From the sequence record PZ445530.1: a DNA stretch of 64,000 nt; one strand, given 5' to 3'. Each line of letters starts with the position of its first letter. Position 1 is the stretch's first letter. Positions 53,406 through 62,119 of this stretch are shown here, one piece after another. This DNA comes from a phage. A program made the position numbers and the translations under genes. Below the pieces are notes generated by a model. That model did not search any database. It had not been told where the DNA came from and saw only the letters and a list, made by a program, of their open reading frames with translations.

Positions 53406-54104
53406 TTACAATCTTTCAGCAAGAGCCTTTGCGTAACACGCTTCAGCAGACTCTTTGGTGTCAAACCTGCCTAGCGTTTTTCCTCTGAAAGTTACTTTCC
53501 ATTTGCCCCTATCTGCTTCAAATCTGACACCTCTAGATTTATCCCTCCCTAAAGGCTGTCCACGATATTCCCTGACAAACGTGCCACTTTCAAAAGACTT
53601 TTGAGCAGCAAGGGCCTCTTCTAAGGTATCGTATTCTCCTAGGTCTTTCTTATAGTAATGACCTACCTTACCAAAAGCAGCATACCTTCCAGTTCTAGCA
53701 TGAAAATATACACCCAAGTGTCCAGTGTTAGATTTAGGTATCTTGCGTGCCAGGCATCCGTCATCTGCCGCCTTTTTTGCGTTTTCTTCTGGTGTTAACA
53801 GTTGTAGGTTTTCTATCCTGTCATCAGCAACACCATCGGAATAGAAAAGTGGCTTTATGTGATCAACTTCGTACCCTTCTGGAATTGGTCCATAATGCAT
53901 CTCCCACACCAATCTATGCCTGTAGTAATGCACGCCGCGATAGATTATATCCCTGTACCCGTCCATGTTAGTACATCCAGCCTCCTTTCCCATCAGTTGA
54001 GGTTTGTTTTTTGGTGGGGACTTCCAAAACAACCTTCCAGTGCCTGTATCGTATCTAAAGACACTCCACCAGTCAATCCCGTTACTCATCTGTAACAACT
54101 CCAC
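53406..54104 (-). CDS. HNH homing endonuclease with AP2-like DNA-binding repeats (free-standing)
   Basis: HNH motif EVDHIKPLFYSDGVADDRIENLQLLTPEEN; two AP2-like repeats. Confidence 0.8.
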   Translation of the reverse strand: MELLQMSNGIDWWSVFRYDTGTGRLFWKSPPKNKPQLMGKEAGCTNMDGYRDIIYRGVHYYRHRLVWEMHYGPIPEGYEVDHIKPLFYSDGVADDRIENLQLLTPEENAKKAADDGCLARKIPKSNTGHLGVYFHARTGRYAAFGKVGHYYKKDLGEYDTLEEALAAQKSFESGTFVREYRGQPLGRDKSRGVRFEADRGKWKVTFRGKTLGRFDTKESAEACYAKALAERL

Positions 54105-54570
54105 CTGCCTTCTTAAAGATCTCCAGCATCTTGTCTATACTTTCTGCTCGCTGATTGTACAGCTTTCCAGCCCCTGGCGGTGGTGGGAAGCTTGCCCAGC
54201 GGCTGCGGCATTTATAAATGGCCTGATGAATACGCCCTTCATCAATGTCGGCGAGAGCCTTGCACTCACGGATCAGTTGCAACGCAATCTTGTCCTGACT
54301 GTCAGGGCCAAAATCTGGTAATCCTAACTGTTTCATGTAGTGTTTAGCAAACTTCTCCAAAACCTGGTAACGCCCAGCAGCGGAGGAGGTAAGTTTAGCA
54401 TTTAGCTTAACGTAAACACCGGGATGCTTGCTGTAATCGCTGAACAGCTTGCCTCCGACTATGACATCGTACCCCCGATCCTTGGTAGGTTGTCTACCAT
54501 TATCTGTGCCTTCCGAATATGCGATCATATCCAAGAAAGCTTTTCGTTGAACATTTTTATCAAGTTTCAT
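54082..54570 (-). CDS. Endolysin, lambda R-like lytic transglycosylase
   Basis: Close match along length to lambda R (NVQRKAFLDMIAYSEGTDNGRQ, GYDVIVGG, AGRYQ, KQLGL). Confidence 0.9.
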   Translation of the reverse strand: MKLDKNVQRKAFLDMIAYSEGTDNGRQPTKDRGYDVIVGGKLFSDYSKHPGVYVKLNAKLTSSAAGRYQVLEKFAKHYMKQLGLPDFGPDSQDKIALQLIRECKALADIDEGRIHQAIYKCRSRWASFPPPPGAGKLYNQRAESIDKMLEIFKKAGGVVTDE

Positions 54571-54694
54571 TTTTCATACTCTCCAGTTTACTCATAACTA
54601 ACCCGATCAACAACACTGCATAGTGTGGTTATGTAGGTGCCAATTGAAAAACCATCATTCAATTGGCTACCGTTACCTACTGAACCTCCCTACA

Positions 54695-55978
54695 TCATTC
54701 CAGCACCTCCCAAGTGTCTGGGTTAACATTTCGGACGCAGATACCGACAGGGAATTGGTAGTTGTTGTCTTCTGTCCTTGCTTGATATTTGAAGGTGACA
54801 AACTTGCCGATCATTTCCTGCATCCTGTCATAGCTACGCTCCTCGTGCGTGCCTTTCATCTTCATTTTAACAACAACACCTTCCTTGTCAACACAGATAA
54901 GAACACCTTCATCATTCTTATCTTTCTCAACGTCAATAACTTTCACCTCTGCGTCGTTGAACTTTTTCCATTTCAATGCTTCAGATGTTCGCTGACCATA
55001 CTCATATTTACCACAGAAGTTACGCATAATGGTACCTTCATATCCTTCAGACATAAATATACCAACAGACTCTTCGCACCGATCAACCGTATATGCAAGC
55101 TCTGCATCAACAACCTTAATATGATCAAGCATCAAAGAAGTAATAGCACCGTTTGCCTCCATAAGATCCTTACAGCGACCAGACTCTGTTTCAGGATCCC
55201 ACCACACCTTATCGCTAGGAATATCGAAAATATGATACTCTAAGTCGTAGCTGCAGTACCCTCCGTAACGCAAATCATCACGAACAGGCTCAACATCAAC
55301 AGGAATGTCCACCTTGTTGAAGTTTTTGTATGTTGCTAAACCTGCTTTAATCGCAGCCTGACGGCGTTTTTTATCTGCCTTGTAGTCTTTATCGATCTCG
55401 GCCTGAATTTCTTCCTGTGTGCGCCACCGTTTAGCAAGAGACACTATTTTCTGCAAAGGAAGACCATGAATGTATAGTTCCCCATCAAGTTGTTTAATCC
55501 CAGTGGTAGAATGGAAAGAACGAAGTTGCTCTAAAAGCTTTCCTTGAATAGGGTAGGACTTATTACCACGGGAAATAAATTTAGGCTCACCATTTTGGAA
55601 AACAACAAGCAGACGAAGGCCATCTAACTTACGCAAGATCCAGCAAGGTAATTTAAGTGCCTTGCCACGCTTCAGGTAGTCATGCACCAGCATGGGTAAA
55701 AGATCAACACCCTGCTCGCAATCTTCCATGTTTTCAACATACCCCAGACGGACTTGTTTTTCCCACTTGCTGATAGCCTCAAGCTCGGCCTGTTGCTCAG
55801 CTGTAGTCTCGTTGGCACGACCTACGTTCTTAGGTGTGCATACCGTCTCTTTGTACTGCAGTTTACCATCAAGCTTGCCAAACTCTACGATAACCTTATC
55901 ACCATCCGTGAATACTTTCCACTGTTGGTAGCTGCCATCTTTATTCAGTGCGTACAGTGTTGTTTTGATCTGATGCAT
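54695..55978 (-). CDS. ATP-dependent DNA ligase
   Basis: Nucleotidyltransferase motif I KLDGLR (KxDGxR); size about 430 aa. Confidence 0.75.
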   Translation of the reverse strand: MHQIKTTLYALNKDGSYQQWKVFTDGDKVIVEFGKLDGKLQYKETVCTPKNVGRANETTAEQQAELEAISKWEKQVRLGYVENMEDCEQGVDLLPMLVHDYLKRGKALKLPCWILRKLDGLRLLVVFQNGEPKFISRGNKSYPIQGKLLEQLRSFHSTTGIKQLDGELYIHGLPLQKIVSLAKRWRTQEEIQAEIDKDYKADKKRRQAAIKAGLATYKNFNKVDIPVDVEPVRDDLRYGGYCSYDLEYHIFDIPSDKVWWDPETESGRCKDLMEANGAITSLMLDHIKVVDAELAYTVDRCEESVGIFMSEGYEGTIMRNFCGKYEYGQRTSEALKWKKFNDAEVKVIDVEKDKNDEGVLICVDKEGVVVKMKMKGTHEERSYDRMQEMIGKFVTFKYQARTEDNNYQFPVGICVRNVNPDTWEVLE

Positions 55979-56247
55979 TACTCGGCCTCTTCCTTAAAAA
56001 TTTTAAACATCTCTTCTTTACTCATTACCAACCAGTCTCCCATAAAGTCAACTAGCCAATCCCCCTGGTACAAGACAAGGTTACCAAAAGGCTCGACAAG
56101 CTCACACATGCGACGAAGATCTCTGGTCCGAACAGGTGACGATGTAAACACACCTGTATCAATCCACCGTTGCAGATCAGATACTGATGAAGAGCTTCCG
56201 TCAAACTGATGTGCTTCTACAGGTTTAGCAAGATTAAATAACGGCAT
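55978..56247 (-). CDS. hypothetical protein
   Basis: ORF. Confidence 0.4.
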   Translation of the reverse strand: MPLFNLAKPVEAHQFDGSSSSVSDLQRWIDTGVFTSSPVRTRDLRRMCELVEPFGNLVLYQGDWLVDFMGDWLVMSKEEMFKIFKEEAE

Positions 56248-56542
56248 TGCAGTCCTCCTTCTGTAGTAGGTCTTTTATAGGATAAACAAGTAAGTGTGGG
56301 TCGTAATAACGTATAGTCCTATTCTGCCACACTATGAACTTTATTACAACCAAATTTACAATATCTTTATCACCATGTAGCCCAACACACACATTTGTCC
56401 ATATTTTGTGGTTGAAGACCTTGCTATCGATGTAGATTTTAGTGTCAAACTTATCTTCCATTCTACCAATAAGTTTGATCAGCTCCTTCATCTGGTCGCC
56501 AAACACAGCATCTTTTTCAAGATCTCTGGAATGCTTGTACAT
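56234..56542 (-). CDS. hypothetical protein
   Basis: ORF. Confidence 0.4.
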   Translation of the reverse strand: MYKHSRDLEKDAVFGDQMKELIKLIGRMEDKFDTKIYIDSKVFNHKIWTNVCVGLHGDKDIVNLVVIKFIVWQNRTIRYYDPHLLVYPIKDLLQKEDCNAVI

Positions 56543-56604
56543 AACTGACTACCTCACTGCATACTTTCCATAATAAGTAAAGCCGGGTAATCCCGGCTAT
56601 GTTG

Positions 56605-57318
56605 TTAAATATACTCTGTTACATCCTTGAAGCTCGAAGGCTTCATAATCTTACCTTTACTGTCAAGGAATATAATAACTTTATTGCCGTTGTAGAACTC
56701 CTCTTTAGCAACGAAACCTTCGTAGCGACCACCAAAACGACGCTCAAGATCTTTAATCTCCAACTCGATGAGTTGTTCAGCAGGCATATCTGCACTGGCA
56801 CCGTGTGAATGCCGTAGATGGTTGATCCGTGCAAACTTACTGTCATTAGATTTTAGAACCTTCCGCATCATCCCACACACATCCCCGCTAAGCTGGAACA
56901 GCAAAGCTGTTGATAACTCCGCTAGTCGGTAAGCTGACGCTCTTTGCTTGGATGTGTTTTTCGCAGCGATCAGTGTATCATAGAACTCACCGATCTTGAA
57001 CTTAAGACCTCGCGGATTATCAAACAGGTTTGACCACTTTTCGTGGTTATCATTAACAAGATAAGCTGCATAACTTGTGACAACGTGAAGATCGCAGGCC
57101 TCTTTTAGCAGGTGATCTCCACCATCACCTTTCTCCAGCTCTTCCAAAACCTCATTGAACTCTTCCTCAATGAAGCTAAGCTGTAATTCGAATGGTGTGT
57201 ATGATTTTTTCACTTTAGCTGCCACACGGTTCCAGTTTTCCACCCAGTTGGCAGACCAAAGGTAGTTTTCAGGCTGGGACAGTTTTTCCAGGTTGTCGAT
57301 CAGTTTAGTATTCAGCAT
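56605..57318 (-). CDS. hypothetical protein, possibly MazG-like NTP pyrophosphohydrolase
   Basis: Acidic FIEEEFNEVLEELEKGDGGDHLLKEACD resembles EExxE motifs; weak. Confidence 0.3.
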   Translation of the reverse strand: MLNTKLIDNLEKLSQPENYLWSANWVENWNRVAAKVKKSYTPFELQLSFIEEEFNEVLEELEKGDGGDHLLKEACDLHVVTSYAAYLVNDNHEKWSNLFDNPRGLKFKIGEFYDTLIAAKNTSKQRASAYRLAELSTALLFQLSGDVCGMMRKVLKSNDSKFARINHLRHSHGASADMPAEQLIELEIKDLERRFGGRYEGFVAKEEFYNGNKVIIFLDSKGKIMKPSSFKDVTEYI

Positions 57319-57331
57319 TAAAGGTCTCCTT

Positions 57332-57865
57332 TTAAAGTTCCATAAAGTTTTCTACAGTTTCAATAAATGCTTTATCAGAGAAAGCGTCAACAGCACCGTT
57401 AAACCATACAGGGATCCCGCGATCCTCATATTGATAAAGGTCGCTACGTGAAATGCCACTTCCATCTGCACTCTGCGAATCATACTTGTTTACAATCAGC
57501 AGTTTTGTGCCTTTACAAGTAGCAGGAAACAATTCCCAGTTAAAATTAATAACTGTGTTAGAACAACCTACCAGGATCACCATATCATTGCTTGTGAGAG
57601 ATGTCAACAGGTCATACATGTCTGTATACTTAGGAGCAACCTCACCGAAGAACACTACATTGGGCTTAACCCAGGTATACTTGCCTGTATCTACCTCCGT
57701 GTATCCGATATTTTTAATTACATCATTACCTTCAGCATCTTCGTAGGTGATTTCAGGCAAATACCCGTGGACATGTAAAATATCTTCATGTTTTACACCA
57801 GCACGCTCCAGCAAATCATCTACATTGGTAGTAAGGTTGATCACACGACCAGACCAGCGGGTCAT
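57332..57865 (-). pseudogene. Sir2-family protein fragment lacking the N-terminal NAD-binding motif
   Basis: Sir2 motifs LTTNVDDLLERAG, HVHG, KPNVVFFGE, LVGCSNTV present; GAGIS region absent; no SD; stop 5 codons upstream in frame. Confidence 0.5.
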
Positions 57866-57920
57866 GGAGTTTGATTCATGTCAAAAACACAGATCTCAGT
57901 ATGATCACAATCTTGACAGT

Positions 57921-58370
57921 ATGAATGCGGGAATCATCGCCGAGTGGAACTCTGTTGTGTCACCTGCAGACACTGTGTTCCACTTGGGAGATATTGCGTG
58001 CACTAATGATAAGAATATCAACAACTTACTTCCAGATATTCTAAATATGTTGAACGGACATATTATTCTTGTTCGTGGCAACCATGACACAAGGACGACT
58101 GTCAGAATTATGAAAGAGTTCGGTCATGAGGTTGTAGATTATTACGAGCTTCGCCACAACAAGAATTTAATCTGTATGAGCCATTACCAGTTTGCAAAGT
58201 GGAACAGAAAGCCTCACGGATCAGTCCAACTGTTCGGTCATGCTCACGGAACCACACAACAGTTGTTTGGCAGGCAGCTTGATGTCGGTTGGGATGTGTG
58301 GGGGAGACTCTTACCATTAGAAGAGGCATACCGTATTGCAATGAGTTTTGATATTGACAGCAGGGAGTAA
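57921..58370 (+). pseudogene. Calcineurin-like metallophosphoesterase lacking N-terminal motif I
   Basis: Motifs II-V present (HLGDIA, GNHD, SHY, GHAHG) but DxH motif I absent; no SD; track N-terminal extension is antisense to Sir2 fragment. Confidence 0.5.
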
Positions 58371-58417
58371 TCCCTGCTATTTTAAAGAAAATTGCCACAC
58401 AAGGAGAATCAGGAGAT

Positions 58418-58768
58418 ATGAAAGATGGGGATAAGCTGCTATATCTTAAAGTCCCCCTTGAAATACTATCTATGTCAAAAGTTTTGAATGACACAACTGG
58501 GGAGGTTGTTGTTCTTGACTTGTATGACAAGATCGTATACTGCTACCTGCACAACTGGTATAAGCTTGGAGGAAATTCACGCTTCACACCAAGCACAAGG
58601 AAAATTGCAGCAGATGTTGGGATAAAGAAAACAAAAGCAGCAGCGTGCGTTAAAACTTTAGAATGTGCAGGAGTGGTTGAAACATCCACACAAGGGAGAG
58701 GTAAAAGATGCACATTTTCCAAAGTTTTGCCACCAGAAGAAGTTATTCGGATGTCAACAACTGGTTAG
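58418..58768 (+). CDS. Putative HTH DNA-binding protein
   Basis: HTH-like TRKIAADVGIKKTKAAACVKTLECAGVV; SD ggagaa; sits next to palindromic array. Confidence 0.4.
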   Translation: MKDGDKLLYLKVPLEILSMSKVLNDTTGEVVVLDLYDKIVYCYLHNWYKLGGNSRFTPSTRKIAADVGIKKTKAAACVKTLECAGVVETSTQGRGKRCTFSKVLPPEEVIRMSTTG

Positions 58769-58843
58769 ACCAGTAAAAACTTAAATATCTGTACTATAAG
58801 GATTCGTATGTTTTATGTTCGCCATGGAACGGATACTATTAAC

Positions 58844-58924
58844 TGTCCGTGATACGGACACTACTGTCCGTCACGCGGACACATCTGCCCGTAATACGGA
58901 CACTAACTGTCCGTGATACGGACA
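58844..58924. promoter_or_regulatory. Array of four tandem 17-bp palindromic operator-like sites
   Basis: tgtccgtgatacggaca (58844-58860, 58908-58924) plus variants tgtccgtcacgcggaca and tgcccgtaatacggaca, 21-22 bp apart. Confidence 0.55.
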
Positions 58925-59429
58925 CATAAAGAATATAACTAAAATAACTAAATAATAAAAAATAAAAGATCTAGTACTTATGGTACTAAGTACATATACT
59001 TAACTTATGTAGAATATACTAGATCCTAAGTACCATGTTTTAAATTTATTACTTACTATGGGCAGTGTCGGCCCTTCATTGGCACTCGCCTACGAGGGGC
59101 GAGATGCCGGGCCTCCTTGGTGCACACAATAACAGAAGTTCATACATGCAGGTCTGTTAACATGTGTGGGAGCGAAGCGATAGCGCAGGCCAAAGGCCGA
59201 GCACTGATGTGGACCACCGACGAAAGCTTGCCAGCGCCGTAAGGAGTCGGTTGAGAGTCTCCCGCGCGAGCTTGGATGAAGTTTATGTGTGGAAACTGAC
59301 AAGAAGGCCCCTAAATCGCTCCACAGCTATATAAACTATACCAGGTAATGCAATCGCACCAGTTTGATAGAAAAGCTCGTTACAAAGCGATACAGTGAGT
59401 TTTTCTATAACTTGAAGAGGGGGGCAGCT

Positions 59430-61305: not shown

Positions 61306-61380
61306 GCCCTGTTAGCTTAGTGGATAAAGCAGCGGCCTTCTAAGCCGTTGACACTGGTTCGAGTCCAGTACGGGGTGCCA
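61306..61380 (+). tRNA. tRNA-Arg (anticodon TCT)
   Basis: Cloverleaf by hand: acceptor gccctgt/acggggt, T-loop ttcgagt, anticodon loop cttctaa, encoded CCA. Confidence 0.6.
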
Positions 61381-61384
61381 AATT

Positions 61385-61471
61385 GGGGAGTTATCCCGTA
61401 GAGGTAGCGGTGTAGACTGTAAATCTATTGTCATTACGACTCGGGTGGTTCGACTCCACCACTTCCCACCA
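61385..61471 (+). tRNA. tRNA-Tyr (anticodon GTA), class II long variable arm
   Basis: Acceptor ggggagt/acttccc, anticodon loop ctgtaaa, long variable arm, T-loop ttcgact, CCA. Confidence 0.55.
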
Positions 61472-61585
61472 AATTTATAGTTTTAAATGCATAAATCATA
61501 CAGATAATGGCATTGATATTTATCGTCGTTTATACTAGTCACTAACTGCTCGAAAATCAGTGTCATTATCAGTATTGTTTATAAA

Positions 61586-61676
61586 TGAGGGTAGGGAGCA
61601 ATGGTGCTCAAGCGGTCTTGAAAACCGTCCCGTTGAGGATGACTCGATGATGGTTCGATTCCATTACCCTCAGCCA
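61586..61676 (+). tRNA. tRNA-Ser (anticodon TGA), class II
   Basis: Acceptor tgagggt/accctca, anticodon loop cttgaaa, long variable arm, T-loop ttcgatt, CCA. Confidence 0.5.
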
Positions 61677-61774
61677 TATTGTTGACCTTGTAATTAAGCG
61701 AAAGCCGGAAGCAGAACCGGATTATCAAATGTTACAGTCGTCATCGCCGACTAGCAACATGGTCAACATACTGA

Positions 61775-61871
61775 GCTAGGTAAGCCCTTTGGCAAGGGCG
61801 AGGATTTTTAATCCTGAAAATAGACGAGGTAGTCGTTGAATACATAGGTGGTTCGATTCCATCACCTAGCA
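61775..61871 (+). ncRNA. Aberrant tRNA-like element (97 nt)
   Basis: Acceptor gctaggt/acctagc and T-arm ggtgg-ttcgatt-ccatc are canonical, but anticodon arm folds as aggat-tttta-atcct (5-nt loop) with about 30-nt extra arm. Confidence 0.3.
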
Positions 61872-61879
61872 CCTTTTTT

Positions 61880-61955
61880 GCTGATGTAGCACAATTGGTA
61901 GTGCAATTGATTTGTAATCAATAGGTTGCAGGTTCAAGTCCTGCCATCAGCACCA
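61880..61955 (+). tRNA. tRNA-Thr (anticodon TGT)
   Basis: Acceptor gctgatg/catcagc, anticodon stem attga/tcaat with loop tttgtaa, T-loop ttcaagt, CCA. Confidence 0.6.
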
Positions 61956-61956
61956 T

Positions 61957-62031
61957 GGCCCTGTAGCTGGAAGGTTCAAGCAAGCGACTCATAATCGCCA
62001 GACGGTGGTTCAATTCCACCCAGGGCCACCA
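61957..62031 (+). tRNA. tRNA-Met or Ile2 (anticodon CAT)
   Basis: Acceptor ggccctg/cagggcc, anticodon loop ctcataa, T-loop ttcaatt, CCA. Confidence 0.6.
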
Positions 62032-62043
62032 AATAATAAATAC

Positions 62044-62119
62044 TCCGCGTAGCTCAGCTTGGTAGAGCGCCTGATTTGGGATCAGGAGGTCGAGTGTTCG
62101 AATCACTCCGTGGAGACCA
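62044..62119 (+). tRNA. tRNA-Pro (anticodon TGG)
   Basis: Acceptor ctccgcg/cgtggag, anticodon stem cctga/tcagg with loop tttggga, T-loop ttcgaat, CCA. Confidence 0.6.

Follow-up and report, generated by a model that had tools for sequence, protein, structure and literature searches.

In the 64,000-nucleotide stretch of phage DNA analysed here (sequence record PZ445530.1; hereafter the window), a minus-strand gene of the Sir2 family and a plus-strand gene of the calcineurin-like metallophosphoesterase family stand head to head, and both lack their N-terminal catalytic motifs. How did two unrelated genes come to be truncated at their facing ends, and what was lost between them? An earlier note on this DNA, made from the sequence alone, had offered as the simplest reading a deletion that removed the shared intergenic region and both 5' ends. 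Alignment to relatives bears out the event and the loss of these parts, and shows that the extent had been understated: 2,087 bp are missing, and three complete genes went with the two 5' ends. The window is an rV5-like Vequintavirus genome with E. coli as host, and we conclude with high confidence that the junction marks where 2,087 bp were deleted between two 9-bp ACCAGCGGG repeats, likely by slippage or annealing. The features of the locus are as follows.

56581-56598, no strand: G+C-rich hairpin, terminator-like on both strands, at the end of the leftward Rnl-cREC-Sir2-MazG unit
56605-57318, minus strand: MazG-like nucleotide pyrophosphohydrolase gene (PHROG 671, E 1.9e-21), the only intact survivor of a six-gene module
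57332-57865, minus strand: Sir2 remnant, probably a pseudogene, of 177 aa, keeping residues 78-253 of a 253-aa phage sirtuin
57747-57854, plus strand: upstream extension of the phosphoesterase frame through antisense Sir2, a by-product of the fusion
57853-57861, no strand: deletion junction, the sole remaining copy of the 9-bp direct repeat ACCAGCGGG
57855-58370, plus strand: calcineurin-like metallophosphoesterase remnant, keeping codons 14-184 of 184
58354-58383, plus strand: promoter-like site TTGACA-18-TATTTT with TG, overlapping the 3' end of the phosphoesterase remnant, upstream of a helix-turn-helix (HTH) gene (58418)

Both remnants lack their N-terminal catalytic segments

The minus-strand reading frame at 57332-57865 lacks the GAGIS region, as the earlier note had observed; coordinates, profile match and an intact homologue agree on this. 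Against the Pfam SIR2 profile (PF02146), the remnant aligns only at positions 79-178 of 180, and the intact homologue of 253 aa (N-terminus MRRLIIISGAGLSAESGIPTFR) covers positions 1-178 and aligns to E. coli CobB (1S5P) from residue 3. The missing part comprises the N-terminal 77 residues, including the GAGLS...PTFR NAD-binding segment with its GAGxS NAD loop and the first Rossmann strand; what remains contains no complete Rossmann domain with an N-terminal GAG(I/L)S NAD-binding loop. The catalytic histidine (VHG) and the TNVD motif are retained. The ATG of the remnant (57865-57863) is non-native, having been made by the junction from bases on the phosphoesterase side, and an in-frame stop lies upstream of it with five codons between, again as noted earlier.

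The plus-strand frame had been described as carrying phosphoesterase motifs II-V without motif I, a description that comparison with the intact 184-aa protein (N-terminus MKYFVTSDTHFLH) upholds. Motif I (D-x-H), which in that protein reads SDTH at residues 7-10, has been deleted, and the GD, GNHD, H and GHAH motifs are kept; the window gene has four of the five metal-binding motifs, motif I being absent. In calcineurin-like phosphoesterases, motif I supplies two metal ligands. The match to the Metallophos_2 profile runs from position 14/15 onward, and this start, together with position 79 in SIR2, places the truncation points by profile. The phosphoesterase remnant protein is identical to the naswa allele. 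It is without its GAGGAA ribosome-binding site and the upstream promoter-like site, and inspection of both starts agrees with the earlier reading that no Shine-Dalgarno sequence precedes either the Sir2 or the phosphoesterase ATG.

Two details of that reading needed correction. The first plausible phosphoesterase ATG had been placed at 57921, where one does occur in frame, but an earlier in-frame ATG is found at 57864, corresponding to native Met17. Likewise, the remnants are not separated by about 55 bp: both abut at the single junction 57853-57861. Upstream of the junction, the phosphoesterase frame stays open to a GTG at 57747 (39 extra codons), which mechanically yields a chimeric ORF of 207 aa at 57747-58370; this exact 207-aa protein was not present in a collection of 15 billion proteins.

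A 2,087-bp deletion ends at a 9-bp direct repeat

Among 50,697 phage records, the best overall matches of the window are only about 98% identical, and the window genome itself is therefore absent from that collection. Its two flanks at this locus have much closer counterparts. The left flank (56600-57861) is 100% identical in AlexBoehm (locus tags bas56_) and I29, and the left-flank match ends at 57861 in all 122 matching records. From 57853 onward, within the phosphoesterase gene, naswa, magaca and rV5_ev146 are 99.9% identical to the window. I29 shows no difference from the window over 1,250 nt to the left of the junction and two over 930 nt to its right. All related records have about 2.1 kb between the two flanks, and BLAST of the 50,697 phage records returned none that holds both contiguously. 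The 2.4-kb region is whole in 118 of 120 related records, the most divergent relatives included; of the two exceptions, one (OR844862.1) is a contig fragment of 5.7 kb. The alignment to related phages that had been proposed as a check thus returned full-length genes in 118 of 120 records, and none of the intact relatives has the short forms.

By base-by-base registers against intact relatives, the window is missing exactly 2,087 bp. The left register matches up to 57861 and the right register from 57853, and the 9-bp overlap between them is ACCAGCGGG; the junction sequence in the window reads GACCAGACCAGCGGGTCATGGAGTTTGA. This repeat occurs once in the window and twice, at 2,087-bp spacing, in seven of the nine intact relatives examined, the other two (FV3 and EcoIv14a_Aya) having one mismatched copy each. 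In the intact form, the copies lie in Sir2 codons 77-80 (antisense) and phosphoesterase codons 13-16. One copy was kept, and filler DNA is absent from the junction.

The probability of finding a 9-bp microhomology at a random junction is about 1e-4 or less. Chance is excluded as an account of the paired truncations: as far as the junction, each flank agrees with intact relatives at every base. A likely mechanism would be replication slippage, or annealing at microhomology, between the two ACCAGCGGG copies. The 4.3-kb module region contains 64 direct 9-mer pairs and 16 direct 10-mer pairs, among which the ACCAGCGGG pair is not uniquely long; judged from the sequence, the repeat supports such a mechanism without explaining the choice of that pair.

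We also considered relocation of the lost genes. Searches by tblastn and blastn found no counterpart of the missing 2,087 bp or of the encoded proteins elsewhere in the 64-kb window, and relocation was rejected within it. The missing N-terminal segments, which might have survived as separate ORFs, were found as such nowhere in the window.

Three assemblies carry the same junction

The exact 177-aa Sir2 remnant is present in a public protein collection, in a cluster that otherwise consists of 253-aa proteins among the 15 members listed of 253. It is encoded on two Logan contigs, from ERR14020395 (51 kb; hereafter L002) and ERR16009830 (40 kb; hereafter L003). In each, it adjoins a phosphoesterase remnant of 149 aa, the form picked by the gene callers, and the junction is identical to that of the window. 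The two contigs differ from the window by about 2% overall and in homing-endonuclease content beside the endolysin gene. Searches for the exact junction (39, 28 and 21 nt) found none in IMG/VR viral contigs, JGI metagenome contigs or GTDB genome contigs, and BLAST found no junction-spanning record among the 50,697 phage records, complete E. coli genomes and PLSDB plasmids. The 2,087-bp deletion is a known kind of event in a gene set already described, and this specific deletion is in no annotated record searched.

The distribution of variants around the junction bears on whether the deletion arose once. The window, L002 and L003 are mutually identical over 56161-57943, with the window and L002 identical from 56063. 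No linked private variants are common to the three carriers: for 1,250 nt leftward from the junction, they also match AlexBoehm and I29, both intact, without a difference. To the right, from 57944 on, the window follows naswa and I29 apart from a private substitution at 58169; L002 and L003 share the AlexBoehm-like state at 57944, 58092 and 58169 and become mosaic thereafter. The remnants are free of stops and frameshifts and are identical or nearly so to intact alleles, which indicates that the deletion is recent on a mutational time scale.

Given this difference in the right flanks, a deletion that arose only once must have been followed by a crossover in the 83 bp that separate the junction from 57944. 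A recurrent hot-spot deletion, by which the window and the two Logan contigs were hit independently at ACCAGCGGG in different parents, would avoid that crossover and is compatible with the deletion explanation; we regard it as a real possibility, albeit the less likely history. Both flanks of the window match one intact phage type, I29, and L002 and L003 carry a different, AlexBoehm-like right flank, as recurrence would have it; the substrate is also widely available, with the repeat pair at identical spacing in seven of nine intact genomes. However, with 64 direct 9-mer and 16 direct 10-mer pairs to choose from in 4.3 kb, two independent deletions would be unlikely a priori to fall on one pair, a hot spot excepted. 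The mosaicism of these phages, with tracts of 100-300 bp, makes a crossover within 83 bp of the junction plausible, and the left flank is identical in all three carriers over about 1.9 kb. On balance, we favour a single origin followed by recombination as the probable history.

The same contigs bear on whether the junction is real. An assembly or library artefact could take the form of a chimeric join at a short repeat or of a minority deletion variant promoted to consensus; template switching in library preparation also yields microhomology junctions, and the window junction is known from an assembly. Yet the same junction lies inside long contigs (51 kb and 40 kb) from different runs, with different flanking alleles and homing-endonuclease content, and assembler k-mers are far longer than a 9-bp repeat. 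Since two independent Logan assemblies share the junction and have other right flanks, we take it not to be an assembly artefact, an explanation that we consider very improbable. The deletion is thus present in three distinct assemblies.

Two further differences among the carriers were observed outside the module. Across 54590-55409, in the 3' half of the ATP-dependent DNA ligase gene (54695-55978), the window shows about 60 substitutions relative to L002 and L003 in 0.8 kb, and over the adjoining 2.5 kb (55410-57943) a single base differs from L002. The former segment, within an essential gene, is a sharply bounded recombination patch and an example of how finely mosaic these phages are. Farther left, an ORF of 232 aa with HNH_3 and AP2 homing-endonuclease domains (53406-54104, minus strand) overlaps the 3' end of the endolysin gene (54082-54570). 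At the same site, L002 has no insert and L003 has a different AP2-domain ORF of 257 aa; these differing inserts mark a polymorphic homing-endonuclease site.

The deleted segment belonged to a predicted RNA-repair module

In AlexBoehm (MZ501048), the interval deleted from the window takes in the 5' part of Sir2, then genes for a 116-aa protein and an RNA ligase, and, beyond a 118-bp divergent intergenic region, the polynucleotide kinase gene and the first part of the phosphoesterase gene. Three genes were lost whole, encoding cREC (116 aa), an Rnl1-type RNA ligase (305 aa) and a polynucleotide kinase (136 aa). By profile matching, the first is a cREC_REC 'cyclic-phosphate processing receiver' domain (Pfam PF20274, E 4e-14). 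The ligase matches Pfam RNA_lig_T4_1 (E 1e-14) and PHROG 562 (E 1e-65), the latter annotated 'RNA ligase and tail fiber protein attachment catalyst', and the kinase is a P-loop AAA_33 protein that matches PHROG 2071 and, more weakly, the polynucleotide kinase family PHROG 505. In sequence searches of solved structures, the RNA ligase had no match at E<=0.01 and the kinase had none; the sole match of the intact phosphoesterase is the uncharacterised Aquifex protein 1XM7. For the surviving MazG-like gene, which is assigned through its PHROG match, the Pfam PRA-PH match is below threshold.

A sirtuin-centred, NAD+-utilising RNA-repair neighbourhood has been predicted computationally, with Escherichia phage V5 and Proteus phage Mydo as prototypes (Iyer, Burroughs, Anantharaman and Aravind 2022; PMC9503650, section 3.7.3). 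Its members are a sirtuin, cREC, a MazG pyrophosphatase, a nucleotide kinase and a T4-like tRNA ligase, to which a calcineurin-like phosphoesterase is added in some cases. The sirtuin is predicted there to be KptA/Tpt1-like and to remove a 2'-phosphate, with other enzymes resolving the cyclic phosphate before ligation (PMC9503650). Examined for this neighbourhood, the window has the adjoining MazG gene and lacks an intact sirtuin, ligase, cREC and kinase.

The ancestral module would represent a heal-and-seal system for RNA cut by host ribonucleases. In the predicted sequence of steps, phosphorylation of the 5'-OH end would fall to the kinase, and opening or removal of the 2',3'-cyclic phosphate to the phosphoesterase and cREC; Sir2 would remove the 2'-phosphate using NAD+, and the ligase would seal the break. 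By analogy with T4 Pnkp and Rnl1 acting against PrrC, the lost module would restore tRNAs that host defence nucleases had cleaved. We found no experimental work in the literature on the Vequintavirus module or on rV5 or Vequintavirus deletion mutants.

Transcription units around the scar

Depositor annotations and consensus scans agree on two short divergent units in the intact locus. The leftward unit runs through the ligase, cREC, Sir2 and MazG-like genes to a hairpin terminator; the rightward unit comprises the kinase and phosphoesterase genes, and a site resembling a terminator or a promoter separates it from the HTH gene. The deletion took out the middle of this pair of units, and the lost intergenic region included a promoter-like site upstream of the kinase gene, seen both in the scan and in the depositor annotation. 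The suggestion in the earlier note that the scar may have changed promoters holds to the extent that this site is gone, but effects on genes outside the module are probably small, because terminator-like sites bound both operons and the next rightward gene has a promoter-like site of its own. That site, at 58354-58383, suggests that the HTH gene at 58418 is independent of the deleted promoter. Within the module, the MazG-like gene now lies downstream of the promoterless Sir2 remnant and may depend on an internal promoter-like site at 57607-57579. A new promoter at the junction was considered and rejected: no promoter-like site spans the junction, and nearly all such sites have a counterpart in the intact genome.

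The HTH gene itself (58418-58768; HTH_36/DUF6945) is followed directly downstream by four palindromic units, TGTCCGTnAnnCGGACA, at 58840-58925 with a spacing of 21-22 bp. After this array comes a very AT-rich stretch (58935-59060), with further inverted repeats. From its sequence, the region resembles an iteron/origin or an operator array. The HTH gene of phage Murica is annotated 'replication initiation protein' in RefSeq.

Could the short forms at the scar be functional, as truncated enzymes or as a neo-functional fusion ORF at 57747-58370, instead of pseudogenes? Both remnants have open frames with ATGs, the Sir2 VHG and TNVD motifs and phosphoesterase motifs II-V are retained, and weak plus-strand promoter-like sites lie at 57792-57819 and 57878-57905. 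However, the Sir2 form is without its first Rossmann strand and GAGxS/PTFR NAD pocket and the phosphoesterase is without motif I; both ATGs are without a ribosome-binding site, no promoter-like site created by the junction replaces the lost native promoter region, and the short forms are found in no relative. Function in either form seems to us highly unlikely. Weaker still is the formal possibility that the short form came first and other phages gained the 2,087 bp by insertion, which is effectively refuted by the gene truncations: the bordering genes are complete, with full Pfam profile coverage, in the long form only; the long form occurs in 118 of 120 records, among them the most divergent relatives; and a repeat inside the coding sequence of two unrelated genes has the character of a deletion substrate and not of a target-site duplication. 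Returning to deletion as the preferred reading, we infer that five of the six module genes are dead and that the Sir2 and phosphoesterase remnants are pseudogenes.

Implications of the loss

The lineage with the deletion evidently still propagates, which suggests that the module is dispensable on the hosts of the carrier phages. The window offers a natural knockout, seen in at least three assemblies, of a computationally predicted phage RNA-repair and counter-defence module. The near-identical intact phages AlexBoehm and I29 provide comparison strains, with which the host ribonuclease defences countered by the module could be sought. In annotation, both remnant ORFs should be flagged as pseudogenes and not labelled 'Sir2 deacetylase' or 'phosphoesterase'.

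Loss of the module may have been selected and not neutral, for instance if one of its proteins triggers a host defence or if its use of NAD+ and ATP is costly, but we consider this improbable. Were it true, ACCAGCGGG-mediated deletion would be expected to recur, or to spread by recombination, among natural Vequintaviruses, and the window set against I29 and AlexBoehm would form an isogenic-like series for a first experimental test of sirtuin-based RNA repair.

About 3 kb separate the site of the lost RNA-repair module from a cluster of seven tRNA genes (61306-62119). The cluster encodes Arg-tct, Tyr-gta, Ser-tga, Thr-tgt, Met-cat and Pro-tgg, together with an odd tRNA-like gene of 99 nt (61775-61873) to which ARAGORN assigns the 4-base anticodon atcc. 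Phage-encoded tRNAs are another known means of tolerating host tRNA cleavage.

Comparison with known systems

Deletions between short direct repeats are known in phage genomes, for example from deletion studies of T4 rII and T7. The present deletion shares with these its 9-bp flanking repeat, the retention of one copy and a junction free of filler. Relative to them it shows nothing unusual, and many repeats of similar length occur in the region.

In T4, Pnkp and Rnl1 form a tRNA healing-and-sealing pathway directed against the PrrC anticodon nuclease. The lost module follows the same logic, with a 5'-kinase, a 3'-end phosphoesterase and an Rnl1-family ligase. The two differ in the make-up of the healing enzymes: whereas T4 Pnkp carries a fused, HAD-type phosphatase, the Vequintavirus module has the kinase and phosphatase as separate genes and uses a calcineurin-like metallophosphoesterase. 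The Vequintavirus module also has cREC, Sir2 and MazG in addition.

The closest parallel in gene content is the predicted V5/Mydo-type system (PMC9503650), the components of which are the same as those of the intact ancestral locus in AlexBoehm, I29, naswa, rV5 variants and others. Compared with that system, the window holds a degenerate remnant, in which MazG alone is intact, Sir2 and the metallophosphoesterase are truncated, and cREC, the ligase and the kinase are gone.
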